From Candidatus Binatota bacterium (GTDB lineage Bacteria; Desulfobacterota; Binatia; UBA1149), in the NCBI GenBank assembly GCA_012960245.1, contig DUBO01000051.1, positions 60,887 to 124,886 on the forward strand: a DNA stretch of 64,000 nt, written 5' to 3'. Below, in pieces: positions 6,997-28,487 of the stretch; positions within the stretch are counted from its first letter, which is position 1; each line of letters begins with the position of its first letter. The notes under the pieces were generated by a model. It did not search any database. It worked only from the letters and a program-made list of their open reading frames with translations, and was not told where the DNA came from. A program made the position numbers and the translations under genes.

Positions 6997-7262
6997 CACG
7001 GCGAACTGGTGATTGTTCACCCGCCGCGTCGCCCAGGGGGGGCGAGTCGACGTCGGCCTGCCTTTGGCAACGGGGATGCCAGGGCAGCCGCGTCGACGAA
7101 GGATCCCGAAACCGGCAGAGCAGACGCTACAGCGTTTAACCGTGACGCATAATTACCCGTTCGGGGGGCGAGACAGTTTCCGAAATGGGGGCTAACGTCA
7201 TTAGCAAGGATAGTCAGGGGGGGGGTCCTCCGATGTTCTAAGTTTTTTGGAGGTCTTGTTCG

Positions 7263-10200: not shown

Positions 10201-12509
10201 CGGACGTGTGTACCGATGACAGTTGCGATGCGTTTGCCGGTTGCACGAACAGCTTCAATGCGTCCGGCTGTAGCGACGGCAACGCCTGTACCACGGGTGA
10301 TACCTGCAACGCGGGTATCTGCGTTGGTGGACCGCCACCGGCTTGTGACGACGGCAACGTTTGTACCGCAGATCTTTGCGATAGCAGCGTGGGCTGCGTG
10401 TCGTTGCCTACGTCGGTGAGTTGTGACGACGCGGATCCTTGCACGATCGATGACTTCTGCGTCAACGCTGCCTGCGTGGGCTCCACGCCCCCGGACTGCA
10501 GCGACGGCAATGTCTGCACGGACGACAGTTGCGTGAGCGCGGCCGGTGGCTGTGTGAACCTGCCCAACTCGGCGCCCTGCGATGATGGCGATGCCTGCAC
10601 GACCAACGACACCTGCCAAGCCGGTGTCTGCGTGGGTGGCGCGGCGCCCGACTGCGACGATGTCAACGGTTGCACCGACGACACTTGTGACAGTGCAATC
10701 GGCTGCGTAAGCGCAAACAACACGGTGTCTTGTGAGGACGGCGAGTTTTGCACCGACGGCGACCAGTGTTCGGGTGGCTCCTGCCAGCCGGGTGCGGCCA
10801 GGGATTGCTCGGATGGCAACGCCTGCACGACAGACAGCTGCGATGACGCTGCCAACCAGTGCCAGCACGTGGCCGACGATGGCTTCTGCGATGACAGTAA
10901 CCCCTGCACGAACGATTTCTGTTCGACGGCAACGGGCTGCTTCTACCAGGATAACGGCTTTGCCTGCGACGACGGGGACGCCTGCACGACCATCGACACC
11001 TGCCAGGCCAGTGTGTGTGTGGGTAGCACGCCGCCCAACTGCGACGATGGAAACGGTTGCACCGACGACGTCTGCGACAGCGCGACGGGCTGTGCGAACA
11101 ATGACAACACTGCCCTTTGCAGCGACGGCGACGCCTGTACTACCGGCGATGCCTGCTCGGCGGGCAGCTGCTTTGGCGGCGCCGCGCCTGATTGCGACGA
11201 CGGTAACGTGTGCACGGCCGACACCTGCGACACAGCCCTGGGTTGTCAAAATACCAACGTAGCTGTCGCCTGCGACGACGGCGACGCCTGCACCACGACC
11301 GATACTTGCTCGGCCGGCGGTTGCGTGGGGGGTGCTGCCCCTGATTGTAACGACGCCAACGGCTGTACCGATGACGTCTGCAATAGCGCGACGGGTTGTT
11401 CCAATACTGACAACACCACGGCCTGTGACGATGGTGACGCTTGCACAACCGGTGATATTTGCGCGGCTGGTTCGTGTGCCGGTGTAGATACTTCGGCCCA
11501 GGATTGCGAAGACGGAAATTCCTGCACGCTGGACTTCTGCAACCCTGCGAGCGGTTGCGTGAACGCTGCTACGGCTGGTAGTTGCGACGACGGCGACGCC
11601 TGCACGGATGACGACCAATGTATCAACGGGTCCTGCTTAGGCGGAGGCGCGCATGATTGTGATGACGCCAACGGTTGCACCGACGACAGTTGCGACAGCG
11701 CGACTGGTTGTGCCAACAGCGACAACACGGCCGCCTGCGACGATGGCGACGCCTGCACCACGGCTGATACCTGTGCGGCGGGTAGCTGCGTGGGCGGGGT
11801 CGCGCCGGATTGCGACGATGGCAACGGTTGCACCGACGACACCTGCGACAGCACGAGTGGCTGCGCTTACTCTAACAACACAGCCACTTGCGATGACGGC
11901 GAACCGCTCACCCCGGTAGACCAGTGCATCGCCGGCCAGTGCGTGGGCAGTGGATTGCAGTGCCCCGTACAACCAGTGGCGGGTTGCCGACAGCCGGTCA
12001 AAATTGGCAAGGCCAGGCTGGCGCTCAAAAAGAATGCTGTGGTGACGGCCAAGGACCGCATGAAGTGGAAGTGGGCCAACGGGTCTGCCACCGCGGCCGC
12101 CGACTTTGGTGACCTCGTTGGTGGTAGCGGTGAAGGTCTCGCCATTTGCTTCTACGATGAAGTTGCCGGCCAGGCCTCGCTTGTGATGGACCAGCTGGTG
12201 CCCGCGGGTGGCAGCTGCGGCGGCAAGGATTGTTGGGTAGAAACACCCAGGGTCATTAAGTTCAATGATCGATCGGGCGCAGCCAGCGACGGGATAACGG
12301 CATTAACTATCAAGCCCGGCGCCGACGGCAAGGCCAAGATCAAGGTCAAAGGCTCTGGTACGCGACTGGGAGTGGGTTCGCTGCCCCTGTCGATGGACAC
12401 CAAGGCTACCATGCAGGTCATAGCCGAGCCTGGTAGTTGCTGGCAGGCCGATTACTCGTCAGCTGCCAAGAACACCGACGGGCAGTTCAAGGCCAAGAGT
12501 TCGAATTGA
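7263..12509 (+). CDS. Secreted di-heme cytochrome c peroxidase (CCP/MauG family) domain with large insertions, fused to CTDC-type Cys-rich repeats (about 10000-11930) and the shared C-terminal domain (about 11957-12509)
   Basis: A GGAGG RBS sits 8 nt upstream and the N-terminus looks like a signal peptide. Heme motif 1 ([23 protein letters not shown]) is at 7545-7559. Heme motif 2 (GLCVGCH) is at 8655-8669. The CCP signature [31 protein letters not shown] is at ~9640-9730. These are followed by ~25 CDDGxACT-type repeats. The C-terminal KWKWANG...CWQADY block is homologous to the C-terminus of the upstream gene. Confidence 0.85.
   Translation: [1748 protein letters not shown]
10000..11935 (+). 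repeat. CTDC-type Cys-rich coding tandem repeats in the peroxidase fusion gene
   Basis: Same repeat family as 1400-2575 and 3826-6475; some units are near-identical at the nucleotide level. Confidence 0.8.
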
Positions 12510-13067: not shown

Positions 13068-16000
13068 ATGAACAATTCTCAACCATTTTATCTACCGGTC
13101 TTCAAGACGATTCGGACAGCGCTGTTATGTTCGGTGTTGATGCTGCTTGTTCCCTTGACGGCAGTGGGCGCCGAGCAACAGCAGGCAGGGGATAGATTTC
13201 CTTCTAATCCGCTAGGAGCCTGCAGCACCAAGCTTGCTGCAGGAGGAGACAAGCTGTTCAAAAAGGCGGCCAGGGCACTGCAAAGATGCCAGAAGGCCGA
13301 CATGTCGACCTCGTGTCTACTCAACAGGCCGGCGAGCGTAGCGGGCGAGCTGTCGGGCTACGCGACCAAGGCACGACGTTCGATGGCGGGCAAGTGTTCG
13401 CGTATTAATTATGATTTGGCTGGATACCCTTCCACCTGTCCGGGTTTCGGAGACGCTTGTGATTTTACCGTGGCTGGCTGGGATGTCACCGGCGAAAAGA
13501 ACGACATGCTTGACTGCCTGCTTTGCATGTACGACGCAGCAGCGAGGCGGAGCCTTGAACTGCAGGTCGTGGTACCGCGTTGCGGCGACGGCATGGACAA
13601 CAGGCTCGACGAAATTTGCGATGACGGTAACGATGACAGTAACGACGCCTGCCTCGGAGACTGCCGCGCGGCGAGCTGTGGTGACGGTTTTGTCTGGGCC
13701 GGCCAGGAGAGCTGCGACAACGGTGACGCTAACTCCGATACAGAGGCAGATGCCTGTCGCAGCGATTGCACCCCTGCGGTCTGCGGTGATGGGACGGTAG
13801 ACAGCGGCGAAGAATGCGATGACTCGGGTGAATCGGCCAGCTGCGACAGCGATTGCAGCCTGGCTGTCTGCGGTGACGGTACCGTAAATGCCTCGGCCGG
13901 CGAGACTTGTGACGACACGGGTGAATCGGCTAGCTGCAACAGCGACTGTACGGTGGCCTCCTGCGGTGACGGCACGACTAATGGCACGGCCGGCGAATCC
14001 TGTGATGACGGCAACGGGGATAACACCGACGCCTGTCTCAACGATTGTTCCCCAGCCTCCTGCGGTGACGGTTTCACATGGGCGGGCTCAGAAGACTGCG
14101 ACGACGGGAATGCCGACAACAATGATTCCTGCCTGGACAGTTGCACAGCGGCGACTTGCGGCGATGGTTTTGCCTGGGCGGGCACCGAAGAATGCGACGA
14201 CGGCAACGCCGACAACGGTGACTCCTGCCTGGATAGTTGCGTCACCGCGACCTGTGGCGACGGCTTTTTATTCTCGGGCAGCGAGCAGTGCGACGACGGA
14301 GCGGCCAACTCTGATACCGCGCCCGACACTTGCCGCTCTGATTGCGAACTGCCGAGCTGTGGTGACGGGGTAGCCGACAGTGCGGAGCAATGTGATGATG
14401 GTAACGCCGACGACAACGACTCCTGCCTCGGCTCCTGTGTCGATGCGTCCTGCGGCGACGGTCATACCTGGGCTGGAATAGAAGCTTGCGATGCGGCTGG
14501 CTATAGCGCTTCGTGCAACCTGGACTGCAGCGTCTCGGTGTGCGGTGACGGCAAGGCCAACCCGGCGGCGGGTGAGGCCTGCGACGCGGCGGGCGAGAGC
14601 GCGGTTTGTGACCTCGATTGTAGTCTTGCGTCCTGCGGTGATGGAACGATGAACACGACGGCAGGCGAGGCTTGCGACGCGGCGGGTGAGAGCACAACTT
14701 GTGATCTCGACTGCAGCCTTGCCTCCTGCGGTGACGGAACAACGAACGCCACGGCAGGCGAGACCTGCGACACGGAAGGCGAAAGCGCCTCCTGTAACGC
14801 CGACTGCAGTACTGCCGCCTGTGGTGACGGCAAGGTCAACAGCAGCGCGGGCGAACAGTGCGATGCGGCGGGAGAATCTGATTTATGCGACGGCGATTGC
14901 ACGGTGGCTGCCTGTGGCGACGGCACCACTAACGCTACTGCCGGCGAGGCCTGCGACGACGGTAACAACAGCAACGGCGATGGCTGTCTCGATAGCTGTG
15001 CCACGGCCAGCTGCGGCGATGGCTTCGTCTTCGCGGGCGAAGAAGCCTGCGACGATGGCAACTCTTCAAACGCTGATGCCTGCCTGGCTGATTGTGCGGT
15101 TGCGAGCTGCGGCGATGGCTTTGTCTTCGTCGGCCAGGAAGCCTGCGATGACGGCAATTCCGACAACGGTGACGCTTGCCTCGACAGCTGCGAGACGGCG
15201 TCCTGCGGCGACGGTTTTCTGTTCGTCGGCGGGGAAGAGTGCGACGATGGCAACAGCAGCGACACCGACTCCTGTAGCGCGGCCTGTGATTCACAACGCG
15301 TAATTTCAGCCGGCGTGGTAGCGCTGGACCAGGTGCTTACCTACAACCGCTGGGGTAGCCACCAGGCTGCGGGGATGATTTTTGCGCTCCGGCGCGACGT
15401 GGTCGACATGGCCGGTAACCCAATAGGGGAGGGCGGAGTGCCAGGCCAGGTAATGCTCAGGCCAGGCAAGCGCCCGCGCCCGCTGGTGCTCAGGGCCAAC
15501 GAGGGGGATGTTCTGCAGGTCCACTTTACAAACCTGCTGGCACCGGCCAGGCCCAACGCCAAGGGAACGACCACGAGGCTGGCTTCGATGATGGTAAACG
15601 GCACGCGTGTGCTGGGCAACACCCACGACCCGGTCGTGACCGGGCTCGAGGGAATCGCACCGGGGCAGTCTACCGACTACTCGTGGAAGGCCGGGCACGA
15701 GGGCACAAAGTTGTTCTACAGCCTCGCCGGACCGGCTGGCGGTGGTGGCGACGGTGGCCAGCTTTCGCTCGGACTTTTCGGAGCTTTAAACGTCGAGCCC
15801 GAGGGCAGCAGCTGGTATCGCAGCCAGGTGACAGCGGCAGAGTTGGCGACGGCGCGGTCCCAGGCCGAAGCACCTGCGCTGCTTAACTACGACGCGGTAG
15901 ACATTGCAGGAGTGCCGGTGCTGCGCATGCTCGACGACGCCGGTGAACTTGTGCACTCTGATCTCAACGCGATCATCGCCTACGACCAAGCAGCAGATAA

Positions 16001-19000
16001 CGTGCAGTCGACCTCCGAGGCCACTTTCAGGGAGTTCTCGGTAATCTTTCACGACGAGATCGAGCTGACCCAGGGATACCCCCAACTTGATAACGATGTA
16101 CTCAAGCCGGTGAGCGATTCTTTTGCCATCAATTACGGCTCCGAGGGCCTGGGCTCGCGCCTGCTGGCCAACCGCCTGGGCGAGGGGCCGGCTGCGAACT
16201 GCCTGGAGTGCCCCTACGAAGAGTTCTTCCTCGAGTCAGCCGTGAGCGGTGACCCGGCCCTGCTGAATGTTTTCGAGGATGATCCCTCCAACGTTCACCA
16301 CAGCTATATCAACGACAACGTAAAATTCCGCAACCTGCACGCGGGCCCGAGAGAAACGCATATCTTTCACCTGCACGCTCACCAGTGGCTGGCCAACGCG
16401 GGTGAGGGTATCGACGACAACTCGGTATACCTTGATTCGCAGGCAATAAGCCCGATGAGTAATTTCACCTACGAGATCCAGTACGGTGGCGCGGGCAACC
16501 GCAACAAGGTCGTCGGTGATTCAATTTTTCACTGCCATCTCTATCCCCACTTTGCCCAGGGCATGTGGGAGCTGTGGAGAGCACACGATGTACTGGAGGA
16601 TGGAACCCGTCGCCTGATGGACGGAGAACTGGGACCGGGAACAAACCCGCTCACCGGGGTGACGGTTGGCGGCACGCCCATACCCGCGCTTGTTCCAATG
16701 CCCGACTACGCGATGGCCCCCGATCCCAGCTACGGGCCGAACGCATTGCCCGGGTATCCTTTCTACATGGCGCAGGTCGCGGGCCACCGGGCTCCACAAG
16801 CACCGCTTGACGTGGCCAGCGACGGCGGACTGCCGCGACACGTGTTTACTGACGGCGGCCAGCGAAGCACGGGTGCGGGGGCTGCCAGTTTTGATTTCCA
16901 CGTCGACGTGCAGGTCGCCAACATACAGGTGCTGCCCCAGGAGGGAACGGCGCTTGAGCAGGCCGCGATGGCTTTTCACGCCAGCCCCGGTGTGACTACC
17001 ACCACCCCCGAGGGTGACGCAGCTTTCTTTGAACTGAACGGCTTGCCTTCCACCGCCGGTGCCCCTTACGCTGAGCCCTGTCCGCCCCTATGCGGCAGCG
17101 CCCAGCAGGGCGAGTACCAAGCAGCTTGCATGGACGGCTGCACGGGCAAACCCTGGGATCCCGAGTGCTCATTGCGTTGTGAAGACTGCACCACGGCCCA
17201 CCGCACCTACCACGTGTCGTACATAGAGCTCGACCTGTTGGCCAACGCGGCCGGCTGGCACGACCCACAGGGGCGCATAAACGTGCTCGACTCAGACGTT
17301 TCTCTCTACGAGGGACAAACGACCACGGCGGATCCGTTTTTCTTCAGGGCTAACTCGGGTGAGTGCGTCACGTTCAAGCACACCAACCGCGCGCCCAAGG
17401 AGTTTGACCTGGATGATTTCCAGGTGAGGACGCCCGCTGATGTGGTTGGCCAGCACATCCACCTTGTCAAGTTCGATGTGACAAGCTCCGATGGCTCGGG
17501 CAACGGGTGGAACTACGAAGACGGTACTTACTCTGCTGAAGCCATCGCCGAATGGACGGCGGCCAGCAATGCTCTCGGTGGGTCGGCCACCTCGGGATAC
17601 GACGCGGCGGGCAACCCCGTCAACGTGTGGGGCGACGGCGCAACCTCGGGGGTGCCCACGACGCTGACGGCCGACGGTGGCTTTCAGACCACCACGCAGA
17701 GGTGGTGGGCAGACCCCTTGCTCAATAAGCATGGCCAGGACCGCAGCATAAGAACGGTGTTTACCCACGATCACTTTTTTCCGTCTACCGGCCAGCAGCA
17801 CGGTTTTTACAACGCGCTCACCATAGAACCTGCCGGTTCGCAGTGGCTCACGCCCGACCTGACCGATGATCTTTCGCTGCCGCTCGACCCCGCCCGCGGT
17901 GTGGGTACGCAGGCATACATAATTGCCGCGGACAGCAAGACCTGCACGGTGAGCGGGGAGGCGGTAGCCGTTGAACCGTTGCCCTGCAACTCGGACGCCG
18001 ACTGCCCTGAAGAAGAATGGTGCATGAATATGGACCACCGTGAGTTCATGATGGCGGTGGCCGATCTTGCACTTCTTTATACGCCCCTGGGTGTGCCCAT
18101 AGGCGCGCCGGCCCAGCCAGAGGCCATATCGAGTAAGGGTGGAACAGACGTAGTAAACTACCGTAACGAACCTTTTGCCGGACGCGGCGGCCCTCATCCC
18201 GATGCCGATTTGGATACGCTGAACTCGGGTAACGGCGTACCTTCCGGCGCGTTCAGCTCCTGGGTAAACGGCGACCCCTTTACCGAGATATTCAAGGCCC
18301 GCGAGGGCGAACGAATGCAGGTGCGGCTTATACAGGGCGCACAACAGGCCCAGCACAGCTTCAACCTTCACGGCGGGTTGTGGCCCGAGGCCATAGACGA
18401 CTCTGGGTCCCCGATGGTTCAGGGCCAACCCATAGGTATATCCGAACACTTCGAGTGCGACATGGGCGTGGCTCCGCCGGTGACCGGCGGCGGCGTGGCC
18501 GATTACCTGTACCATTTCGGCGCCAATGATCATTTGAACGACGGAAGCTGGGGTCTCATTCGCGTGTTTGCTGACGGGCTTTCTTTTGATGCCAGCGACT
18601 CTGAACTCAGGTCGGCGCAACTGGCCGCCGCGGCTGCCGGCGAGCGCAACGACTGCCTTGAGGATTCACCCGCGCGCTTGTTCGAGGTCGAAGCCTGGCG
18701 GGCCGCCGACCTGCTGCCCGGCGGCCGGCTGGTGTACAACCAGCGCGAGGACATTTACGACCCCAACGCGCGTATCTTCTTGCTGGCCGAGGACCGGGCC
18801 GCACTGGCGGCGGGTACCAAGGCCGTCGAGCCGCTCGTGCTCAGGGCCAACTCCGGCGACTGCATCACGGTGTCGTTGACTAACCACATGCCAGACACCG
18901 AGGTATCGATGCATCCGCAGCGCGTGTCCTACGACGTACGCTATTCTGACGGTGCCAACGTGGGCTTGAACTTTCTCCAGACCGCTATGCCCGGTGAGAC

Positions 19001-19706
19001 TATCAACTACCACTGGTTCGCCGGCTATACGTGGCACGGATTTTCCGAGCCTGAGGAGCTGGGTCCGGGCAACCTGCGCTCCTACGGCGACTTCCTGGTC
19101 GATGCTCGGCAGGGCTTGCTCGGCGCGTTGGTAATAGAAGAAGCCGGTGCCAGCTGGACCGACACCGTGACCGGCACGGCGGCTTCGTCGGGAACAGCGG
19201 TAGACGTGACCACGGCCTCTGGTGAAACCTTTCGCGAGTTCGTAGTTCTCTACCAGGAAGACCTGGACTTGTTCACGGGCCAGGGAAGGATTCCCGACGC
19301 CAAGGTCGATCAGGCCGAGAAGGCGTTCAATTACCGAACCGAGAATTTCTGGGCGCGGCTGGGCGTTCCTACTTCCGTAGACTTGAATGACGTGGCGTTT
19401 CCCTCCGATTTTTTCAGCGGCCCTATCGAGACACCTTTGTTCAGGGCAGCCGACGGGCAGAAGGTTCGTTTCCACGTACTGCAGCCCTCCGGCGGTCCCC
19501 TGCAGCACACCTTCCTCGTGCAGGGGCACGACTATCCGGACAACCGCCAACCGATGGCGGGCACCGGGGGGGCGAGCATTATAGCCCCCTTCGTGGCCCG
19601 TACCATGGACCTGGAAGGCGGCGCGCGCGCCGGCACATGGCTCTATCACGACGGCACGGGGTACGGTCGGGCGGGTGGCCTCTGGGGCCGGCTGGAAGTC
19701 GACTGA
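13068..19706 (+). CDS. Giant secreted fusion protein: N-terminal Cys domain, about 45 myxo-type disulfide-rich repeats (13590-15290) and a large multi-unit multicopper oxidase (15290-19706)
   Basis: Signal peptide-like N-terminus. Repeats of the form CGDGxVxxGEECDDGNxxxxDxCLxxC (TIGR02232-like spacing). Two cupredoxin domain-1-like segments (LVLRANEGDVLQVHFTNL, LVLRANSGDCITVSLTNHM), each followed by GLxGALxVEP. An HIFHLHAHQW (HxHxH) motif at 16355-16385 and a type-1 Cu motif HCHLYPHFAQGM at 16531-16566. Additional HIHLV, THDH and TWHGF His-rich motifs. Confidence 0.8.
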   Translation: MNNSQPFYLPVFKTIRTALLCSVLMLLVPLTAVGAEQQQAGDRFPSNPLGACSTKLAAGGDKLFKKAARALQRCQKADMSTSCLLNRPASVAGELSGYATKARRSMAGKCSRINYDLAGYPSTCPGFGDACDFTVAGWDVTGEKNDMLDCLLCMYDAAARRSLELQVVVPRCGDGMDNRLDEICDDGNDDSNDACLGDCRAASCGDGFVWAGQESCDNGDANSDTEADACRSDCTPAVCGDGTVDSGEECDDSGESASCDSDCSLAVCGDGTVNASAGETCDDTGESASCNSDCTVASCGDGTTNGTAGESCDDGNGDNTDACLNDCSPASCGDGFTWAGSEDCDDGNADNNDSCLDSCTAATCGDGFAWAGTEECDDGNADNGDSCLDSCVTATCGDGFLFSGSEQCDDGAANSDTAPDTCRSDCELPSCGDGVADSAEQCDDGNADDNDSCLGSCVDASCGDGHTWAGIEACDAAGYSASCNLDCSVSVCGDGKANPAAGEACDAAGESAVCDLDCSLASCGDGTMNTTAGEACDAAGESTTCDLDCSLASCGDGTTNATAGETCDTEGESASCNADCSTAACGDGKVNSSAGEQCDAAGESDLCDGDCTVAACGDGTTNATAGEACDDGNNSNGDGCLDSCATASCGDGFVFAGEEACDDGNSSNADACLADCAVASCGDGFVFVGQEACDDGNSDNGDACLDSCETASCGDGFLFVGGEECDDGNSSDTDSCSAACDSQRVISAGVVALDQVLTYNRWGSHQAAGMIFALRRDVVDMAGNPIGEGGVPGQVMLRPGKRPRPLVLRANEGDVLQVHFTNLLAPARPNAKGTTTRLASMMVNGTRVLGNTHDPVVTGLEGIAPGQSTDYSWKAGHEGTKLFYSLAGPAGGGGDGGQLSLGLFGALNVEPEGSSWYRSQVTAAELATARSQAEAPALLNYDAVDIAGVPVLRMLDDAGELVHSDLNAIIAYDQAADNVQSTSEATFREFSVIFHDEIELTQGYPQLDNDVLKPVSDSFAINYGSEGLGSRLLANRLGEGPAANCLECPYEEFFLESAVSGDPALLNVFEDDPSNVHHSYINDNVKFRNLHAGPRETHIFHLHAHQWLANAGEGIDDNSVYLDSQAISPMSNFTYEIQYGGAGNRNKVVGDSIFHCHLYPHFAQGMWELWRAHDVLEDGTRRLMDGELGPGTNPLTGVTVGGTPIPALVPMPDYAMAPDPSYGPNALPGYPFYMAQVAGHRAPQAPLDVASDGGLPRHVFTDGGQRSTGAGAASFDFHVDVQVANIQVLPQEGTALEQAAMAFHASPGVTTTTPEGDAAFFELNGLPSTAGAPYAEPCPPLCGSAQQGEYQAACMDGCTGKPWDPECSLRCEDCTTAHRTYHVSYIELDLLANAAGWHDPQGRINVLDSDVSLYEGQTTTADPFFFRANSGECVTFKHTNRAPKEFDLDDFQVRTPADVVGQHIHLVKFDVTSSDGSGNGWNYEDGTYSAEAIAEWTAASNALGGSATSGYDAAGNPVNVWGDGATSGVPTTLTADGGFQTTTQRWWADPLLNKHGQDRSIRTVFTHDHFFPSTGQQHGFYNALTIEPAGSQWLTPDLTDDLSLPLDPARGVGTQAYIIAADSKTCTVSGEAVAVEPLPCNSDADCPEEEWCMNMDHREFMMAVADLALLYTPLGVPIGAPAQPEAISSKGGTDVVNYRNEPFAGRGGPHPDADLDTLNSGNGVPSGAFSSWVNGDPFTEIFKAREGERMQVRLIQGAQQAQHSFNLHGGLWPEAIDDSGSPMVQGQPIGISEHFECDMGVAPPVTGGGVADYLYHFGANDHLNDGSWGLIRVFADGLSFDASDSELRSAQLAAAAAGERNDCLEDSPARLFEVEAWRAADLLPGGRLVYNQREDIYDPNARIFLLAEDRAALAAGTKAVEPLVLRANSGDCITVSLTNHMPDTEVSMHPQRVSYDVRYSDGANVGLNFLQTAMPGETINYHWFAGYTWHGFSEPEELGPGNLRSYGDFLVDARQGLLGALVIEEAGASWTDTVTGTAASSGTAVDVTTASGETFREFVVLYQEDLDLFTGQGRIPDAKVDQAEKAFNYRTENFWARLGVPTSVDLNDVAFPSDFFSGPIETPLFRAADGQKVRFHVLQPSGGPLQHTFLVQGHDYPDNRQPMAGTGGASIIAPFVARTMDLEGGARAGTWLYHDGTGYGRAGGLWGRLEVD
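13590..15290 (+). repeat. Myxo-type disulfide-rich repeat array (~108-nt period), coding
   Basis: CGDGxxNxxAGExCDxxGESxxCxxDCxxAxCGDG is reiterated about 45 times. Confidence 0.85.
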
Positions 19707-19756
19707 CGGCTATAGCCCGGCAACTGGCCCGGTCGCTGGCGGATTAATTTGTTCTG

Positions 19757-19807
19757 CCCCCCTAACGGGGGGTACGGGCCGCTGTTTCCCCGTTTGGGGG
19801 CTTGTTG
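19757..19807 (+). terminator. Two GC hairpins (CCCCCC-taac-GGGGGG; CCCC-gttt-GGGGG) followed by a CTTGTTG tail; candidate intrinsic terminator after the oxidase gene
   Basis: Inverted repeats read directly from the sequence. The T-tract is weak. Confidence 0.35.
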
Positions 19808-19847
19808 AACTCCCCCGACAGGGTAACTTTTTATAAGGGGTTACAGC

Positions 19848-21746
19848 TTGCGGGGGTTTCCTAAATACGAAAGAAAGGTGGGATTGTCGGTGGCGATCCT
19901 GTTGCCGCTGGCGATGGTTTTCGGCTGCCCGGTGCCGGTGGATGCCGCGGATTCCAAGCCTGCGGGCGTTGAATTCTCGGTACACAACCTGGATTCCAAG
20001 GCGGGTCAGGCAATCAGGGCGGGCGGGGACCTTCTGGTCAAGTTCAGACTGTCTGATCCCGATTCTGGCTTCGGACTGTCGCAGTTGCACCCGGCTGCCT
20101 GGCTCAGCCCGCGCGAGAAGGGCGCTCCCGCGCCGTCGCAGCAGGAGTGCGAAAACCTGATACGCGGCATGGGGCAGTTCGGTGTCACGCACGCCGACGA
20201 CGATCTCAACGGTTACTACATCCTCACCCTCAACGCTGACAATTCAGTCTCTATTCTCAACCCCATGGTCAGCCTGAACACTTCCAACCAGAAGGCCCAC
20301 ATTCTCCTGGACGGCGAGGCGCACGCATGGGATTTTGACCCCAACACGGCGCTGGCCTGGGTGACCTTGCCCGACGATAACAAGGTGGCCGTTGTTGACG
20401 TCAAGGGCCGACGAGTCGCTGCCTACCTGGCAGTGGGCAACGCGCCGCGGTCGATAGAAGTACAACCCGACGGTCGTTTTGTGTGGGTGGGCAACGACGA
20501 TTCGGGTACCGTCAGCGTGTTGGCCCCAAGCGGCCAAGGACAACTTCGTTCGATCGAAGTGGGGCGAGGCCCGATAGATTTTGCCTTCGACGAACAGGGG
20601 CGCTACGTGATCGTGTCAGCGGGGGGTGCCGGCCGCGTGTCGGTGATCGATACGGGGAGCATGAAAGTCGTATCTTCTCTCGAAGTGGGCGAAGGCTCAC
20701 TTCAGGTCGCCTGGGCAGAACTGGCCGGCGCTTTTTACCTGCTCAACCCTTCGCGCAACACGGTTACGGTCGCTTACCCCCGCGAGGGCCGGGCTGCCGT
20801 GGAGATCGATGTCGCCGAGGGCGCCACGACGATTGAAGCCGATCCGCAGGGACGCTGGGTATTCGTGATCAACCCCGAGGCGCGCGCGGTTGACATCATC
20901 GATACCGCAGCTGCGAGGCTGTCGCGCAGGGTAGCGCTCGAGGAAAAACCCAGCCACGTTCTTTTCAGCTCGATCTTCGCCTACGTCTACCACGCCGACA
21001 GTTCCAACCTGTCGCTGGTAAAGCTCTCTGCGCTTGCGGATGCTGAAGCTGCACCGGTGCTGATCATCCCCATGGGAGTTGAGCGACCCGAGGGAAGAAT
21101 GGTGCGCCCGGGCCTGTTGCCCATGGACATTCTGCCCGATGAGGGCGGCGCCGTGGTGGCCAACCCGGTCGAGAAGGTCATCTATTTTTACACCGACGGA
21201 ATGATGTCTCCGATGGGTTCGTTCAAGACATGGGCGTCGAACCCGCTGGGCGTGATTCTCTACGACCGCTCGCTGCGGGAGCGCGGCAACTCGGGCGTCT
21301 ACGAGACGGTTACCCGCCTGGACGAACCCGGGGTGTACGATGTTCCCTTCGTGCTGGGCAGCCCACGGGTAGTGACCTGTTTTGAGTTCGAGGTCGCGGG
21401 AGAGCCCGGGCACGGGGAAGCCGTGAAGCCGTTGTTCCGCGGACTGTTCGTGGGCGAGGATCTCGCCCCGGGTGACGAGGTGACCCTGCGCTACCAGGTG
21501 GTCGACGGTCGCGATGGCCGTCCCCTGACCGGTCTCGACGACCTGAGATTGATAACCTTTCGCGCGGGCGAGAACTGGAGCGCGAGGTCCTGGACCAAGG
21601 AAGTAGAAGACGGCGTGTACGAGGCGGGTGTCACCTTTCCGCGCGGCGGCCGTTACCTGGTGCAGGTGGAGGCACGCTCGCTGGGCATCGGTTTCGGCGA
21701 TGCTGGAAGGGACTACGCCGACGTGTCGCAGGGAGCGACGAGATGA
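19848..21746 (+). CDS. Secreted, possibly lipoprotein, YVTN-family beta-propeller protein with an Ig-like C-terminal domain
   Basis: Signal peptide with an FGC motif. Repeated segments of the form YVIVSAGGAGRVSVIDTGSMKVVSSLEVGEG are typical of 40-residue YVTN beta-propeller repeats. The stop overlaps the next start (ATGA). Confidence 0.7.
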   Translation: MRGFPKYERKVGLSVAILLPLAMVFGCPVPVDAADSKPAGVEFSVHNLDSKAGQAIRAGGDLLVKFRLSDPDSGFGLSQLHPAAWLSPREKGAPAPSQQECENLIRGMGQFGVTHADDDLNGYYILTLNADNSVSILNPMVSLNTSNQKAHILLDGEAHAWDFDPNTALAWVTLPDDNKVAVVDVKGRRVAAYLAVGNAPRSIEVQPDGRFVWVGNDDSGTVSVLAPSGQGQLRSIEVGRGPIDFAFDEQGRYVIVSAGGAGRVSVIDTGSMKVVSSLEVGEGSLQVAWAELAGAFYLLNPSRNTVTVAYPREGRAAVEIDVAEGATTIEADPQGRWVFVINPEARAVDIIDTAAARLSRRVALEEKPSHVLFSSIFAYVYHADSSNLSLVKLSALADAEAAPVLIIPMGVERPEGRMVRPGLLPMDILPDEGGAVVANPVEKVIYFYTDGMMSPMGSFKTWASNPLGVILYDRSLRERGNSGVYETVTRLDEPGVYDVPFVLGSPRVVTCFEFEVAGEPGHGEAVKPLFRGLFVGEDLAPGDEVTLRYQVVDGRDGRPLTGLDDLRLITFRAGENWSARSWTKEVEDGVYEAGVTFPRGGRYLVQVEARSLGIGFGDAGRDYADVSQGATR

Positions 21747-22381
21747 AACAAGGCTTGCTCACAGTGCTGCTATCGGCAGCGATGCTTGCTTGCCCGTTCT
21801 TGATGCGGGCGGCAACGGCCGCGGGCGTGAGCGCGGGGGGAAACGACGCTGGCGACGTCAGGCTTATCGACGTGCCGCTGCTCGACCAGGATGGCAAGCG
21901 CATGATGCTGGTCAGTGACCTGGTCGGGGAGAAGATCGTGGTAATGAACTTCATTTTTACTACCTGCCCGTCGGTGTGCCCCATGCAGTCTGCAATTTTT
22001 GCAGGCCTGCAGAAGGAGCTGGGTGATCGCCTGGGCAACGAGGTCAAGCTGTTGAGCCTGAGCATAGACCCGGTCACCGATGTGCCTGCGAGGCTGGCGG
22101 AAACCGCCGCTCGCTACGGGGCGCGAGAGGGCTGGACCTGGCTCACGGGCGAGAAGGCCGACGTCGACAGGGCCCTGGTCGGCCTGGGTGCGTACTCGAG
22201 CGAGGTTGAATCGCACCCGGCGATGATCCTGGTGGGAGACGGCAGCACGGGCGATTGGACACGCTTCTATGGTTTTCCGCGTCCGGTAGACGTGCTGGCC
22301 CGAGTGGACGCGCTCGTCGCGGCACGGATCGCGGGGCCGGGAGCGGTTGCCGCGGAGCCGGCAGAAGAAAACCAGCGATGA
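21743..22381 (+). CDS. SCO1/SenC family copper chaperone (thioredoxin fold, CxxxC)
   Basis: VVMNFIFTTCPSVCP...LLSLSIDPVTDVPARL...GWTWLTG is the SCO1/SenC signature. ATGA overlap with the upstream gene. Confidence 0.8.
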   Translation: MKQGLLTVLLSAAMLACPFLMRAATAAGVSAGGNDAGDVRLIDVPLLDQDGKRMMLVSDLVGEKIVVMNFIFTTCPSVCPMQSAIFAGLQKELGDRLGNEVKLLSLSIDPVTDVPARLAETAARYGAREGWTWLTGEKADVDRALVGLGAYSSEVESHPAMILVGDGSTGDWTRFYGFPRPVDVLARVDALVAARIAGPGAVAAEPAEENQR

Positions 22382-23043
22382 AATGCTCGAGCTCTAAAAC
22401 TTCGACGATTAGTTTCGCAACGGTGAGCGTGACGGCCCTGGTGTGCTTTCTGCTGCTCGGTGTAACCCGTTCCGCCGCGGCCGCCGCCGCCGAGACTCAA
22501 GCTACTACCACCCCCGTTTCTGTCACTGCCGCCCGCGACGGAGACGAGGCCGCGCGAAGCTGGTTCACCGAATCCATCTTGCTTGACCAACGCGGTCGAG
22601 AGCTGAAGTTCTACAGCGATGTTCTCAAGGACCAGGTAGTGGTCGTCAACTTCATCTTTACCCGTTGCCCCGGCACTTGCCCGGTGCAGACGGCCAAGAT
22701 GTCGGAACTCTACAAGGAACTCGGTGGAGAAATGGGGCGGACGGTGCGCTTCGTATCGATTTCGGTAGACCCCGACAACGACACACCGGCGAAGTTGCTT
22801 GAATTTGCAGACCGCTACAAGGCTGGTGACGGCTGGTTTTTTCTTACGGGTGAGCAAAAAAGTCTCGACCAGGTAACGCGCAGGCTCGGTGCTCACAATA
22901 GTCTTGCCGAGGCGCACTCGCCCTTGTTCCTGCTCGGAAATGTCAGCCGCGAACACTGGGTCAAAATGCGCCCGAGCGCTTCGGTGGCAACGCTGGCGGG
23001 TGAAGTACGAAAACTGCTCGCGGTCGATAAAGAAGATGGCTGA
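22378..23043 (+). CDS. Second SCO1/SenC family copper chaperone paralog
   Basis: Internal ATG at 22378 (MKCSSS..., signal-like TM segment) overlapping the upstream stop (ATGA). VVVNFIFTRCPGTCP...FVSISVDPDNDTPAKL...GWFFLTG. Confidence 0.8.
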   Translation: MKCSSSKTSTISFATVSVTALVCFLLLGVTRSAAAAAAETQATTTPVSVTAARDGDEAARSWFTESILLDQRGRELKFYSDVLKDQVVVVNFIFTRCPGTCPVQTAKMSELYKELGGEMGRTVRFVSISVDPDNDTPAKLLEFADRYKAGDGWFFLTGEQKSLDQVTRRLGAHNSLAEAHSPLFLLGNVSREHWVKMRPSASVATLAGEVRKLLAVDKEDG

Positions 23044-24673
23044 CAGGATGACGGCGGCACTGCCAGCGCGGTTACTCGTCGTGGCGGCGCTGGGTGGGGT
23101 GCTGGTTGCCTTGGTTGCCGATCCGGCAGTGGCTGGCTGGGGCGAACAGGAGCAGCGCGGCAAGTCGGTTTACGAGCAGGGCAGGGCCACGGGCCAGGTG
23201 AAGGCACTGCTGGCGGGGCCGGGCCTCGAAGTCGATGCGGCCCAGTTTCCCTGCGTAAACTGTCACGGCCACGACGGCGCGGGTGTCATTGAAGGTGGCG
23301 TCACCACTGCCGACATCAGGCCGTCGCGCTTAGCGTTCGCGGCCGATGCCACCAGGGACTTCGGCAGGCAGCGGCCGGCCTACGACAACGAGGCGCTGGC
23401 AATGGCGATCAGGTCGGGTCTCGACCCAGGTGGCAACAGCCTTCACCCGGCCATGCCTCGCTACCGTATCAACGACGACGACTTGGCCGACCTGCTGGCC
23501 TACATGCGCCACCTGGGGCGAGAGCCTGTAGCAGGGGTAGCAGAAGATGCGGTGAGGGTCGCCGCGTTGCTGCCTTCCGCTGGACCGCTGGCCGCCCCCG
23601 CCCGCGAGGTTGAGCGTGTGCTCGCGGCCTTCGAAGAATACACCAACGAACAGGGCGGGGCCTACGGTCGGCGCTTGCTGCTGGAGCTCAAGCACTACGA
23701 TCCGTCGGTGGATGCCGGTGGCGTTGCCGCGGTGGACGAGTTGCTGGCGGGCGAACGCCCGTTCTGCCTCTTGTCGAGCATGGGCCTGGGGGCCGCTGCG
23801 TTGGCCACGCTTGAACAAGCCGGCGTTCCGCTGGTCGCGCCGCTGGCGGTACCTGCCAGTGACGGCTACGGCGCCGCCCGAAACACCTTTTTTGTTTTTA
23901 CCTCCGTGGCCGACCAGGCCAGGGTATTGGTCGATCATCTGGTGGCCGAGCTACCCGGCCTGGGCGGGGGCGCGGTGCTGCTGCACGACTCTGGTCCCGA
24001 GGGGCTGGCGGGCAAGCTGGGTGTAGAAAGCCAACTGTCCGGCTACGACCAGACGCTGTCGGCGAGTATCCAACTGGCAGCTGCGGGAGGCGTTGAGTCT
24101 GTCGTGGCGGAGCTCGTCGCGGCCGGAACAGCGGGCCAACGGCCCTCGGCTGTATTTTTCTTTGCCGATGGAGAGCGAGCGGCAGAGTTCCTGCGCCTGG
24201 CCGCTGCCGAAGACTGGCACCCGCTGCTGTTGGGACCCGCCGAAAGGCTGTCCCCCGGCCTGGCCGGCCTGCCCCCGGCTTTGCTCGCCGGACTGCGCCT
24301 GGTTTCGCCTGCCGGGGTGCCGGACCTAGACGCCGGCCGTAGCAGGGAGTTTCTCGCGGTGATGGAAAGAGAAGGAATTGCGGGGAGCTACCGCGCGTTT
24401 CAAATCTCGGCCTGGGCTGGAGGCTTGCTGCTGAGAGAAGGGTTGCGGAGATCTGGCCGTCGTCTTACCACACCTCGTTTCATGGCATCGCTCACCGGCC
24501 TGCGCGGGTTCGATACCGGCTTGCTGGCGCCGTTGTCATTTGACGAAAACAGCAGGGTGGGTGTGGCCGGCGCCACGGTGCTGCGGTTTTCAACGGCCGG
24601 CCCGGGCTTGTCGGTTGCCCGTAGATGGCGCGAACCCCTGGCGGCATCCGCCGTTGTAGAGCCTCAACTGTAA
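23036..24673 (+). CDS. Periplasmic mono-heme cytochrome c domain fused to a type-I periplasmic binding protein (Leu/Ile/Val-binding-like) fold
   Basis: Start MADRMTAALPARLLVVAALGG overlaps the upstream stop by 8 nt. A CVNCH heme motif is followed by a Met-containing loop. The remaining ~450 aa has a PBP-like alternating alpha/beta pattern. Confidence 0.65.
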   Translation: MADRMTAALPARLLVVAALGGVLVALVADPAVAGWGEQEQRGKSVYEQGRATGQVKALLAGPGLEVDAAQFPCVNCHGHDGAGVIEGGVTTADIRPSRLAFAADATRDFGRQRPAYDNEALAMAIRSGLDPGGNSLHPAMPRYRINDDDLADLLAYMRHLGREPVAGVAEDAVRVAALLPSAGPLAAPAREVERVLAAFEEYTNEQGGAYGRRLLLELKHYDPSVDAGGVAAVDELLAGERPFCLLSSMGLGAAALATLEQAGVPLVAPLAVPASDGYGAARNTFFVFTSVADQARVLVDHLVAELPGLGGGAVLLHDSGPEGLAGKLGVESQLSGYDQTLSASIQLAAAGGVESVVAELVAAGTAGQRPSAVFFFADGERAAEFLRLAAAEDWHPLLLGPAERLSPGLAGLPPALLAGLRLVSPAGVPDLDAGRSREFLAVMEREGIAGSYRAFQISAWAGGLLLREGLRRSGRRLTTPRFMASLTGLRGFDTGLLAPLSFDENSRVGVAGATVLRFSTAGPGLSVARRWREPLAASAVVEPQL

Positions 24674-24876: not shown

Positions 24877-26523
24877 GTGGTTCCCATTCGGTACAGGATC
24901 AGGTCGGCCGCGATTGCGTGCGCGCTCGTGTTGGCCATTGTGTTTACTGCCGCTTTGGCTACCGGGGCTGCCAGCGGGAGGATAGTCAACGGTACCGCGA
25001 CTTTTGACTATCCCGAGGTGGGAATGCTTCTGCACGGCAGCAACCCGTGGAACTCGGGCATGACCTGCAGCGGCACGCTTATCGGTTGTCGTAGTTTCCT
25101 GACCGCGGCCCACTGCGTCTGCCCTTGGTCCGGTGGGCAGTGCCAGGGAGCGGGCGCACCTTACAAGGGCCTGTACTCAGTTTACCTGCAGGGCTCAGGC
25201 GTGTACCGGGCTGAATCGGTGCTGGTGAACCCGGGCTACAGCTACCCTGTTGGCGATCTCGCGGTGGTGACCCTGGATCGCCCGGTAGAAGGAATTGTGC
25301 CCGCCGCGATGGTCGGCGTCACACCGGCCGTGGGCAGCGCGGCAGTATTGGTAGGCTATGGTCGCACCGACGGCGCGGCCTCTGATTTTGGCATCAAGCG
25401 GATGGGGGACGTCACCACGGTTGGCTGCGAATCGGGCTACGACAACGGCAACATCTGCTGGAACTTTGACGGCAGCACCTCGAATACTTGTCACGGCGAT
25501 TCCGGTGGCCCGCTGTTCGTTGACCAGGGAGATGGCCCGAGGCTGGCGGGCGTGACCTCGGGTGGTACCCGCTCCGACTGCGGTCCCGGTGATCACAGCT
25601 TTGACACCAGCGTCGCCGCCTGGGCTGACTGGGTGAACAGCATTGTCGATGAAGCCGCCGGCTGCGAAGGAGCCGAACAACAGGCAGCCGTGATTTTTGA
25701 CGCATCGGCCAACGTGGGCTTTGCTGATGCCCTCGCGGACAAGAAGGACCAGGACCACCACCAGTTTACCGTACCGGCTGGTTCGTCCGCGGTGGCAGCA
25801 ACCCTCAATTCCGTCGATGACAGTCACAGCGACCTGGACCTTTACCTGCGCGCAGGGGCGCCGGCAACCGAGGCTGACTTCGATTGCCGCAGTATTGGAG
25901 GTGGCCCGTTCGGCCACTGCTCGGTCACTGAACCCCTCGCTGGTGACTGGTACGCGATGGTTGCCTCTGCCAAGGGCGCAGCCGAGTACCAACTGCTGGC
26001 AGTGTCGCTGCCCAGTCCGGCATCGTCCTGCGGCGATGGGCTGCGCGAATACGGAGAAGAGTGTGACCAGGCCGACGACCAGGCCTGCCCAGGGCAGTGT
26101 GACTCGTCCTGTGCCTGTCCGCAGGCTTGTTCGGCTAATCTCTTCGAAGTTCGCAAGTTAGAGTCCCGTGGAGGGAGGCTTGCCCTCAAGGGTCTGCTCC
26201 TGGATTACTTTGGCGATTTTACCAGTGCAGATCCCAGGCTCAATCTATCTCTCGCCGAGGTTGGTGCCCCGGAGGGCCAGGGCTTGTTTATTGCCAGCGA
26301 CGATACCGGTTGGAACCGCTCGCGGCCGGGGCGCGGACGTTACACCTGGAAGGGAAGCGCCTACGGTCTACCCGCCAAGCTCAAACTAGTGGACCGGAGC
26401 CGTAGGAAGTCGGTCTGGAAAATCAGCGCTCGCTTGAGCCTTGACGGTGGCGATGTGGTCCCCGCGGCCAGCCTGCGACTGGACTTTGCCGGACTCTGCG
26501 CTCTTTCGAACGGCTCGCGCTGA
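24877..26523 (+). CDS. Secreted trypsin-like (S1 family) serine protease with a pre-peptidase C-terminal-like domain and a C-terminal myxo-type Cys repeat
   Basis: GTG start with a signal peptide. IVNG...TAAHCV (catalytic His) and GDSGGPLF (catalytic Ser ~25497). A PPC-like segment DHHQFTVPAGS...DLDLYLR. A C-terminal CGDGLREYGEECDQADDQACPGQCDSSCAC. Confidence 0.85.
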   Translation: MVPIRYRIRSAAIACALVLAIVFTAALATGAASGRIVNGTATFDYPEVGMLLHGSNPWNSGMTCSGTLIGCRSFLTAAHCVCPWSGGQCQGAGAPYKGLYSVYLQGSGVYRAESVLVNPGYSYPVGDLAVVTLDRPVEGIVPAAMVGVTPAVGSAAVLVGYGRTDGAASDFGIKRMGDVTTVGCESGYDNGNICWNFDGSTSNTCHGDSGGPLFVDQGDGPRLAGVTSGGTRSDCGPGDHSFDTSVAAWADWVNSIVDEAAGCEGAEQQAAVIFDASANVGFADALADKKDQDHHQFTVPAGSSAVAATLNSVDDSHSDLDLYLRAGAPATEADFDCRSIGGGPFGHCSVTEPLAGDWYAMVASAKGAAEYQLLAVSLPSPASSCGDGLREYGEECDQADDQACPGQCDSSCACPQACSANLFEVRKLESRGGRLALKGLLLDYFGDFTSADPRLNLSLAEVGAPEGQGLFIASDDTGWNRSRPGRGRYTWKGSAYGLPAKLKLVDRSRRKSVWKISARLSLDGGDVVPAASLRLDFAGLCALSNGSR

Positions 26524-26627: not shown

Positions 26628-28487
26628 ATGGCAGGCAGCGACCATTCCAGGACCTTAAAAGAAAGCGTTCAGGCCTACCTGGCCGACGGTGACAAGGCTG
26701 CGGCCCATCGCCTGCTCGTTGAACGCTGCTTTGCAGGGGCCCCGGCCCACGAGTACCGCTGGTTGGCCGACCGGATGGCCGAGACTTCAGTTGATGCGGT
26801 TAGCTTGAAGGTCGCATTTCTTTCTACTTACACGGTTGAGCCCCTGCGCGAGCTTCTGCGCGCGCTCGCGCTGGCGCACGGGGTGACCGTGGAGCTCTAC
26901 TTCGGTGGCTTTGGCCAGCTGGAACAGGAGGTGCTGAAGCCGGGTAGTGGGCTCGCGGCGTTTAAACCCGATGCCGTGGTGCTGGCCTGGCGGCTTGAAG
27001 ACTTGCTGCCTGGCCTGTCCGGGGTCGGCGGTCGCGACGACGAAGACAGCGAGCTCGAGGCCCGCCTCGCTGTGTTGCTGGACGGGCTTGCCGACGGCTA
27101 CCGGGGGAGCACGGTACTGGCCCACACCTTTGATTGCCCAGCGGCTGTGCCCCTGGGGGTGGTCGACTACGAACAGCCCGGGGGGGTACGTGCGCGAGTC
27201 GAGCGCTTCAACGCAGTGCTTCGTCAATGCGCCGAGTCGAGGCCGGCGCTGCACCTGGTCGACACTGAGCGCGTGGCTCGGCGCGCGGGTGCCGCCTGGT
27301 TTCAACCCCGCCACTGGTACTCGGCGAGGGCACCGCACGGGCCGGCCGCCTTGCTGGAGCTGTCGCGCGAGTACGCAGCTTACCTGCGAGCGCTGGCCGG
27401 CAGGACGGCCAAGGTAGTGATGCTCGATCTCGACAACACGCTGTGGGGTGGGGTGCTGGGCGAAGACGGCGCCGATGGTGTTGAGCTGGGCCCCGACTAC
27501 CCGGGCAATGCTTTCGTGGCTTTCCAGCAGGAGCTCAAGGAGCTGGCGGCCCGCGGCGTGCTCCTGGTCCTCAACAGCAAGAACAACGAGGACGAAGTGC
27601 GAGGGCTCTTCGCTTCGCACCCCCACATGCTGCTGGGGTGGGGTGATTTTGCCGCTACCAGGGTCAACTGGCAGGACAAGGCGAGTAACACCGAGGAGCT
27701 GGCCGAAGAGCTGTCGCTGGGGCTGGACAGCTTTGTGTTCGTCGACGACAGCCCGCATGAGCTGGAGGTCGTTGGGTCGCGCTTACCGGGGGTGAGCACC
27801 GTGCAGGTGCCCGCCGAACCGGCCGAGCTGCCGGGCCTTCTCTCCCGCCGGGGCTACTTCGAATCCTTGTCGTTCAGCGCCGAAGATTCACGCCGCGGCG
27901 AACTCTACCGAGCCGAGGGAGAGCGTAAAACCCTGCGCGGCAGCAGTCGCTCGCTCGACGACTTCTACCGCTCTCTCAATATGCGATTGCGCGTGCACGA
28001 AGTGGGCGAGGGCGAACTGGTGCGGGTGGCCCAGCTCACGCAGAAGACCAACCAGTTCAACATGACAACGCGGCGTTACAGCGAAGCCGAGACCGCGTTG
28101 TTGTTGAATGACGATGCTACCGCCGTACGAGCTTTCTCGCTGGTCGATCGTTTTGGTGACAGCGGCATTGTCTCGGTCGTTATCGCGCGCGAGGGCTCCA
28201 AGGCATGGGAGCTGGACAGTTTTCTCATGAGCTGTCGGGTCATAGGCCGCACGGTCGAGACCGCCATCCTGGCGCTGATTGCCGACGAGGCCCGTGCTGC
28301 CGGTGCCGGTGCACTGGTCGGTGATTTTTTACCCACGAAAAAAAACGCACCGGCCTCCGGTGTCTACGAAGCTCATGGATTTGTTGAAAGCGGTGGTGCC
28401 GACAGCGAGGGGGGACAACGCTGGAGTCTGGACCTCGGCAGCGACTCGGTGCCTCGGGTGCCTGCCTGGATAGAGATAGCCGACTGA
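26628..28487 (+). CDS. HAD-IIIC / FkbH-like domain protein with a C-terminal GNAT-like acyltransferase domain
   Basis: KVVMLDLDNTLWGGVLGEDG...VLLVLNSKNNEDEV...FVFVDDSPHE matches the FkbH-like HAD motifs I-III. The C-terminal ~150 aa looks like a GNAT fold. Confidence 0.7.
   Translation: MAGSDHSRTLKESVQAYLADGDKAAAHRLLVERCFAGAPAHEYRWLADRMAETSVDAVSLKVAFLSTYTVEPLRELLRALALAHGVTVELYFGGFGQLEQEVLKPGSGLAAFKPDAVVLAWRLEDLLPGLSGVGGRDDEDSELEARLAVLLDGLADGYRGSTVLAHTFDCPAAVPLGVVDYEQPGGVRARVERFNAVLRQCAESRPALHLVDTERVARRAGAAWFQPRHWYSARAPHGPAALLELSREYAAYLRALAGRTAKVVMLDLDNTLWGGVLGEDGADGVELGPDYPGNAFVAFQQELKELAARGVLLVLNSKNNEDEVRGLFASHPHMLLGWGDFAATRVNWQDKASNTEELAEELSLGLDSFVFVDDSPHELEVVGSRLPGVSTVQVPAEPAELPGLLSRRGYFESLSFSAEDSRRGELYRAEGERKTLRGSSRSLDDFYRSLNMRLRVHEVGEGELVRVAQLTQKTNQFNMTTRRYSEAETALLLNDDATAVRAFSLVDRFGDSGIVSVVIAREGSKAWELDSFLMSCRVIGRTVETAILALIADEARAAGAGALVGDFLPTKKNAPASGVYEAHGFVESGGADSEGGQRWSLDLGSDSVPRVPAWIEIAD

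Follow-up and report, generated by a model that had tools for sequence, protein, structure and literature searches.

The four genes at positions 19848-24673 of a 64,000-nucleotide (nt) stretch of contig DUBO01000051.1 from a Candidatus Binatota bacterium (this whole stretch is referred to here as the window) directly follow the gene of a giant multicopper oxidase (MCO) and encode, in order, a YVTN-type beta-propeller, two SCO1/SenC proteins (SCO-A and SCO-B), and a cytochrome c fused to a periplasmic binding-protein domain. We interpret this region as the accessory half of an mnxG-type operon, in which the SCO pair, the heme domain, and the propeller would metallate or otherwise assist the giant oxidase in the periplasm, and we put the probability of this reading at roughly 0.6. 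The most likely job of the four accessory genes would be copper loading of the giant oxidase. The arrangement itself is already known: it is a Binatia-type version of a published, functionally uncharacterized putative mnxG operon, and the features of the window version are a variant sixth gene and an oxidase extended by repeats. In Pseudomonas, mnxG encodes MnxG, a manganese-oxidizing copper enzyme.

In Pseudomonas putida GB-1, the putative mnxG operon consists of mnxG, a YVTN propeller gene, two successive SCO1/SenC genes, a gene for a substrate-binding protein with a cytochrome c domain, and a SurA-like gene (PMC11409713, Table 4 and Fig. 3; PMC8218464, Fig. 2c). Its first five genes match the window in order and domain content. 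The window differs from the GB-1 operon in that its oxidase is distant from MnxG (669 bits versus the 3100-bit cutoff of the family model) and carries ~740 amino acids (aa) of N-terminal Cys-rich repeats, in that its sixth gene encodes a trypsin-like protease instead of a SurA-like protein, and in that its host is a Binatia/UBP10-type metagenome-assembled genome (MAG) and not a pseudomonad. At locus L079, from Halopseudomonas laoshanensis, the MCO scores 3831.5 bits against the 3100-bit cutoff of NF041487 and is a bona fide MnxG, and it is followed by homologues of all four accessory genes of the window. The propeller there is 31% identical to that of the window (E value, 2e-76), and phmmer comparisons gave 148 and 129 bits for the SCO proteins and 161 bits for the cytochrome c fusion.

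In the window, the oxidase gene (13068-19706, forward strand; 2212 aa) has Pfam matches to DUF4215, Cu-oxidase_3, and Cu-oxidase_2 and an NCBIfam match to MnxG (NF041487). Beyond a forward-strand intergenic gap of 141 nt (19707-19847), four consecutive open reading frames (ORFs) lie on the forward strand. The first encodes a periplasmic, seven-bladed YVTN/YncE-type propeller (19848-21746; 632 aa from TTG 19848 or 620 aa from TTG 19884), the second SCO-A (21743-22381; 212 aa; PF02630; the position-1 paralogue), the third SCO-B (22378-23043; 221 aa; PF02630; the position-2 paralogue), and the fourth the fusion of cytochrome c with a type I periplasmic binding-protein domain (23036-24673; 545 aa; Cytochrom_C and Peripla_BP_6). 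The ORFs overlap by 4, 4, and 8 nt: the sequence ATGA forms both the propeller/SCO-A junction (21743-21746) and the SCO-A/SCO-B junction (22378-22381), and the ATG of the fusion gene at 23036 sits 8 nt before the end of the SCO-B stop codon, TGA 23041-23043. A preliminary description of this DNA had reported these overlaps, the four domain assignments, and a tightly packed, cotranslated unit; all three overlaps are visible in the sequence, Pfam and NCBIfam matches back the domains, and the overlapping forward-strand ORFs bear out the packing. There are alternative start codons (TTG 19884 in the propeller gene, TTG 22255 in the SCO-B gene, and GTG 22889 or ATG 23048 in the fusion gene), so the overlap lengths hinge on the choice of start; the closest database homologue of the propeller, P0001, aligns from the residue encoded by TTG 19884. 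A 4-nt overlap between propeller and SCO genes is possible in 15 of 53 related loci, and in most of the others the start lies within ~20 nt. All five proteins, the MCO included, begin with a signal peptide or a hydrophobic anchor and would thus act outside the cytoplasm.

To place the cluster among genomes, one genome per GTDB species was scanned with the propeller, which yielded 241 stretches with relatives, and the best 80 loci were analyzed. The propeller gene is 95 to 97% identical to three MAG contigs labeled “Proteobacteria bacterium NIOZ-UU50,” UBP10 UBA1149, and Candidatus Binatia, and the cytochrome c fusion is identical, across the aligned 96% of its length, to a MAG protein labeled Deltaproteobacteria. 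Among the 48 loci with at least 6 kb of upstream sequence, an MnxG-like MCO is present in 47 and lies directly upstream on the same strand in 40. SCO genes were found in 38 and the cytochrome c fusion in 37 of the 53 loci with at least 5 kb downstream. The 37 loci with both flanks comprise 24 complete sets, 11 with MCO and propeller only (no SCO gene or cytochrome c fusion within 10 kb), and 1 without the MCO. These linkage counts make the propeller the gene most tightly bound to the oxidase, and the near-equal, joint counts of the SCO genes and the cytochrome c fusion show them to form a submodule gained or lost as a unit.

The order MCO, propeller, SCO, SCO, cytochrome c fusion on one strand is shared by the window, L079, L084, L081, L086, and many other loci, and complete sets occur in at least seven phylum-level groups (Binatia, Gammaproteobacteria, Acidobacteriota, Desulfobacterota, Planctomycetota, Bacteroidota/Chlorobiota, and Myxococcota). 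A protein search and context look-up anchored on the cytochrome c fusion, which samples just three further contigs (L085 among them), recovered the same cassette in each. Since the gene order is kept in dozens of distant genomes, the arrangement is not due to chance.

This conservation also bears on the most familiar role of such proteins, as SCO1/SenC proteins are best known as assembly factors of cytochrome oxidase (PMC9145763). On that precedent, the two SCO genes could serve ordinary cytochrome oxidase assembly at the CuA or CuB site, or general copper homeostasis, and their adjacency to the MCO would be accidental. The same order beside MnxG-like MCOs in at least seven phyla speaks against an accident, as does the translational coupling of the SCO genes to the propeller gene. 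No COX1 (GHPEVY) or COX2 (CuA) motif was found in the window or in 87 loci (1.45 Mb) by a six-frame scan for these two signature motifs, which divergent or cbb3-type oxidases would escape, and the Pfam-annotated neighborhoods (L081, L082, L084, L085, and L086) hold no cox genes. The window itself has no SCO genes other than these two. Given the MCO linkage and the lack of COX motifs, a role in cytochrome oxidase assembly is essentially excluded, and we regard it as very improbable. The proposal of the preliminary description that the SCO set is tied to the giant MCO and not to cytochrome oxidase has therefore held up, and neither of the arrangements it had named as counterevidence, an operon conserved without a neighboring MCO or one beside cytochrome oxidase genes, was borne out by the locus survey.

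The two SCO proteins themselves retain the copper ligands of their family. SCO-A and SCO-B match the SCO1-SenC family (PF02630) with 62.3 and 72.3 bits, respectively (cutoff, 22.8 bits). In SCO-A, which begins with a signal peptide or anchor, the motif is CPSVC and the distal His lies in the sequence SHP; in SCO-B, which has a hydrophobic anchor at its N terminus, the motif is CPGTC and the distal His lies in the sequence AHS. The copper triad of CxxxC plus His is kept at both positions in nearly all of the 110 SCO domains from related loci; among the exceptions are some second copies, from loci of the Desulfobacterota and Myxococcota types, that have lost the cysteines. Two SCO domains are present in 52 of 58 loci. 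The copies in the window are only 33% identical to each other, and for 104 of 104 domains of two-copy loci, the nearest relative in another locus is the one at the same position. Such divergence and strict positional orthology indicate that the duplication is ancient and that the copies are specialized. The duplicated SCO1/SenC chaperones of the preliminary description are thus real, with intact copper ligands in both, and it is only a recent duplication that the positional orthology across phyla speaks against. In at least 13 loci, the two SCO domains are fused in one ORF. All 10 fusions that were scanned show two SCO1-SenC stretches, and 4 of the 10 add an N-terminal heavy-metal-binding domain (HMBD), which suggests that SCO-A and SCO-B work together on a metal. 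The SCO1/SenC chaperones of cytochrome oxidase assembly (ScoI/PrrC/YpmQ and human SCO1 and SCO2) belong to the same Pfam family and share the CxxxC-plus-His motif and the extracytoplasmic location, whereas the SCO proteins described here lack a cytochrome oxidase context, are paired with an MnxG-like MCO, and are often fused to each other, sometimes with an HMBD. SCO-A and SCO-B recall human SCO1 and SCO2, which are two cooperating, nonredundant paralogues.

A different chemistry for the pair has to be weighed at this point. Both SCO proteins give subthreshold matches to AhpC-TSA and Redoxin, two cysteines (C101 and C511) are invariant in the propeller family, the cassette of L082 is followed by a DsbA/Thioredoxin_4 gene, and Mn oxidation needs a TlpA-like isomerase (PMC11409713). 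These observations would fit a model in which SCO-A and SCO-B are mainly thiol-disulfide oxidoreductases or peroxiredoxin-like proteins that maintain the proper redox state of cysteines in the exported oxidase or in the propeller; the cytochrome c domain would be one link of this redox chain. We consider this model unlikely. The complete Sco copper triad is conserved at both positions, 4 of the 10 fused SCO pairs that were scanned also carry an HMBD, and the cassette is also kept where the MCO has no Cys-rich repeats. Furthermore, the redox potential of a His/Met c-type heme is far too high for disulfide reduction, so that copper is the more plausible electron acceptor of the heme domain. Copper delivery by the SCO proteins to the oxidase is a plausible function, and one that the genomic context supports well.

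The fourth accessory protein consists of a signal peptide, a monoheme class I cytochrome c, and a type I periplasmic binding-protein domain. Cytochrom_C (PF00034; 29.4 bits; cutoff, 21.3) and Peripla_BP_6 (92.4 bits; cutoff, 31.7) both match above their cutoffs within one ORF, in agreement with the fusion that the preliminary description had proposed. The heme ligands are C73-V-N-C76-H77 and M140-P141, and both the CxxCH and the Met-Pro are conserved in >95% of 44 homologues; the heme domain is therefore a real His/Met cytochrome. The binding-protein domain has a type I venus-flytrap fold of the LivJ/AmiC/UrtA kind (Foldseek matches to 3lop, 4n0q, 4evq, and AmiC, with target TM-scores of ~0.7), and the fold search gave generic LivJ-, AmiC-, and UrtA-type proteins from which no ligand class could be assigned. 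One of the structure predictions in this analysis was based on a shallow alignment of five sequences. With no ATP-binding cassette (ABC) transporter genes beside the fusion gene in the window or in the Pfam-annotated loci, the domain is an orphan.

An orphan binding-protein domain with no transporter nearby resembles the sensor AmiC, and, together with a genuine and conserved c-type heme, it raises the question of whether the cassette instead serves electron transfer or sensing. In that case, the cytochrome c fusion would link the oxidase with the respiratory chain or sense a small ligand (the preliminary description had suggested that it may supply electrons or sense a ligand), and the propeller, which is related to the enzyme propellers of hydrazine synthase beta, NirF, and NosZ, would be catalytic or handle a substrate; two-component and sigma-54 regulators adjoin the cluster in L082 and L084. 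However, an MCO hands its electrons directly to O2, with no need of a cytochrome as partner. The occurrence of the cytochrome c fusion follows that of the SCO genes and not that of the MCO, for it is absent from the 11 loci that have MCO and propeller only. A conserved His cluster like that of NosZ or thiocyanate dehydrogenase is missing from the propeller, and the L-NosZ model reaches only 33 bits on it (cutoff, 700 bits). An electron-transfer or sensory module is accordingly, in our judgment, quite improbable.

The propeller is the most tightly linked of the accessory proteins. It matches YNCE (30.0 bits; cutoff, 27.1), Cytochrom_D1 (33.9 bits; cutoff, 25.5), and the YVTN repeat model TIGR02276 (65.7 bits; cutoff, 27.85). 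Its AlphaFold2 model (pLDDT, 82; pTM, 0.75) comprises an N-terminal beta-sandwich, the propeller, and C-terminal Ig-like beta-sandwich modules. The best fold match of the propeller model is 1l0q, an archaeal S-layer YVTN propeller with a PKD domain, and further matches, with 5c2v_B and 3vgz among the best, are to hydrazine synthase beta, YncE, NirF, and NosZ. Among the 70 members of the propeller family, C101 and C511 are invariant and probably form a disulfide, and the motif YxYxEGMxxPMG is conserved at ≥90%. His243 is conserved in 93% of the family, yet it is replaced by Ile in the window (20574-20576) and in its closest clade; if this residue belongs to a metal site, the site has been lost in the clade of the window.

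The Ig-like tail noted in the preliminary description is present as a YtkA-like (PF13115) beta-sandwich, with a score of 24.3 bits that falls slightly under the 25.9-bit cutoff. YtkA, or CtaK, is the lipoprotein copper chaperone for CuA in Bacillus subtilis, and it relies on conserved His and Met residues (PMC9145763). In residues 529 to 632 of the propeller protein, in contrast, His, Met, and Cys are all absent, and across the family this segment lacks conserved ligand positions. Copper binding by the tail, for which a test of metal binding had been proposed, is therefore unlikely, and we rejected the tail as a copper site. A Met-based Cu(I) site elsewhere on the propeller would be speculation. 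Two further candidates were rejected on the grounds of weak, repeat-level matches and no conserved ligand cluster: a copper enzyme of the NosZ or thiocyanate dehydrogenase type (the L-NosZ model is NF052460, and its CuZ-type His cluster is not conserved) and an AztD-like metallochaperone.

The presumed client of the accessory cassette is the MCO. It has a Sec-type signal peptide, the stretch of Cys-rich repeats, which are acidic, and then an MnxG-like multicupredoxin core, in whose translation the copper-ligand motifs HxH (HLHAHQW) and HCHxxxHxxxxM (HCHLYPHFAQGMW) are visible. MnxG (NF041487) is by far its best NCBIfam match (E value, 1e-200), under the equivalog cutoff. Its translation contains no twin-arginine motif, and for this reason, we presume that the protein is exported unfolded and would pick up its copper ions in the periplasm.

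Taken together, these features suggest how the cassette could work. SCO-A and SCO-B, each with an intact CxxxC plus His, may form a nonredundant copper relay or insertase, in which one SCO would mainly deliver Cu(I) and the other would handle the redox state of the site, by analogy with human SCO1/SCO2 and bacterial TlpA/ScoI. The c-type heme domain could provide a single electron to make copper Cu(I) or keep it so, and the orphan binding-protein domain might be a docking or ligand-sensing module. The propeller would bind the oxidase, as a scaffold, a holding chaperone, or an adaptor for the cell surface or secretion. In its most specific form, this scheme casts the four accessory proteins as a metallation machine of the periplasm that is very widespread and dedicated to giant MnxG-type MCOs, with the heme reducing copper for the Sco pair and the propeller holding the unfolded oxidase; we put this form forward only tentatively and find it somewhat doubtful as a whole.

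Several published observations are in line with metallation. Mn oxidation in pseudomonads requires a TlpA-like thiol-disulfide isomerase and the ccm genes for cytochrome c maturation, and mcoA, the gene of a second Mn-oxidizing MCO, likewise precedes an SCO gene (PMC11409713). In Streptomyces, GlxA, a cuproenzyme other than cytochrome oxidase, matures in an Sco-dependent manner together with a heme protein (PMC4736821). The metallation model fits all three. The sco operon of Streptomyces lividans (Sco, ECuC, and the heme peroxidase DtpA) thus joins an Sco copper pathway and a heme protein for the benefit of a secreted copper oxidase (PMC4736821), as we propose here. The client there is a mononuclear radical copper oxidase, whereas here it is an MCO of the six-domain type, and the heme protein there is a DyP peroxidase; S. 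lividans also lacks the propeller and the second Sco. A large Mn-oxidizing MCO with dedicated accessory proteins in one operon is likewise known from the Bacillus Mnx complex (MnxG with MnxE and MnxF), in which MnxE and MnxF are small copper-binding subunits. The accessory proteins of the two systems are unrelated, being MnxE and MnxF there and a propeller, two SCO proteins, and a cytochrome c fusion here. Bacillus MnxG is cited as reference 50 in PMC8218464.

Against an accessory role in metallation stand a number of points. We found no experiments on the four accessory genes in the searchable literature. The thioredoxin fold of the SCO proteins allows an oxidoreductase role instead of copper donation. 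The fold matches of the propeller are all to generic propellers, and it has no established copper-binding site, the one family-conserved His (243) being Ile here; those of the binding-protein domain are generic too, and the cytochrome domain in the model of the fusion is of low confidence. The 669 bits of the window MCO against the MnxG model leave its substrate unassigned. Finally, about 30% of the both-flank loci have MCO and propeller with no SCO gene or cytochrome c fusion nearby, so that these genomes must either do without the copper module or encode it at another site.

The gap between the MCO and propeller genes is GC-rich and contains hairpins, with a weak terminator-like site at 19801-19822. 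Its predicted RNA fold (-62.7 kcal/mol; z = -1.9) is marginal. The gap gave no hit to a sigma-70-like or sigma-54-like site, and no convincing promoter of either type was found there or upstream of the MCO, where match counts were at chance level. One possible role of the gap is that of an attenuator controlling how much oxidase is made relative to the accessory proteins. No regulators of the mnxS/mnxR type were seen in the annotated part of the window. In two loci from other lineages, the DNA immediately upstream of the MCO gene encodes sensor kinases and a response regulator of the sigma-54 or GerE type (L082:1-3843 and L084:1-2577), an arrangement that recalls MnxS1/S2/R of Pseudomonas.

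Downstream of the cassette, a forward-strand gene (24877-26523; 548 aa) encodes a trypsin-like serine protease with a PPC domain (Trypsin, 72.4 bits; PPC, 39.9 bits). It is conserved downstream in L001, L002, and a 54%-identity relative, L004 (L004:15094-16776), and was not found beside the cassette in lineages other than Binatia relatives. It is possibly a sixth member of the cluster as found in Binatia, and the protease might process the repeat-bearing oxidase. The gammaproteobacterial loci L084 and L086 hold SurA-like genes where Binatia hold the protease. Farther downstream, an FkbH-domain protein (26628-28487), conserved in the closest relatives only, and a TonB-dependent receptor on the opposite strand (31386-33566) have no established link to the cassette.

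On the upstream side, the window encodes three consecutive giant secreted proteins with Cys-rich repeats, the third being the MCO with its repeat-bearing N terminus (13068-15290). The first (7-6996; at least 2329 aa) has 14 Dictyostelium-type repeats and a cohesin-like stretch, and the second (7263-12509; 1748 aa) combines a MauG/MbnH-like diheme peroxidase domain with the same Cys-rich repeats. A diheme peroxidase gene of the MauG/CCP type lies beside the MCO-propeller pair in unrelated lineages (L025:12289-13731, L077 at ~15131-15498, and the window at 7263-12509), which hints that this peroxidase is a second recurrent partner of these oxidases. Genes of the type II secretion/pilus type (E ATPase, F, M, secretin, and pseudopilins) adjoin the cassette at L067:11759-17202, L079:15507-17213, and L086:10123-13276, and such neighbors in three distant lineages would fit an oxidase that is exported to the cell surface. 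One metagenomic cassette, L085, has two MnxG-like MCO genes (1-1746 and 5187-9920), one before the propeller gene and the other between the SCO pair and the cytochrome c fusion.

For the window itself, the main gain is a correct annotation as the Binatia-type version of a known operon. The analysis shows that the cassette is conserved with MnxG-like oxidases across at least seven phyla, that the SCO proteins are ancient partners, at times fused and at times with an HMBD, and that the cytochrome c fusion goes with the SCO genes and not with the oxidase. The question addressed is how giant Mn-oxidizing MCOs acquire their copper, and the cassette gives a concrete hypothesis for the route; it is a candidate explanation for the requirement of Mn oxidation for ccm, which dates from 1998, and for a TlpA-like protein. 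If the metallation machine exists as outlined, it would account for the dependence of pseudomonad Mn(II) oxidation on ccm and on a TlpA-like reductase, and it would establish Sco proteins as general insertases for multicopper oxidases.

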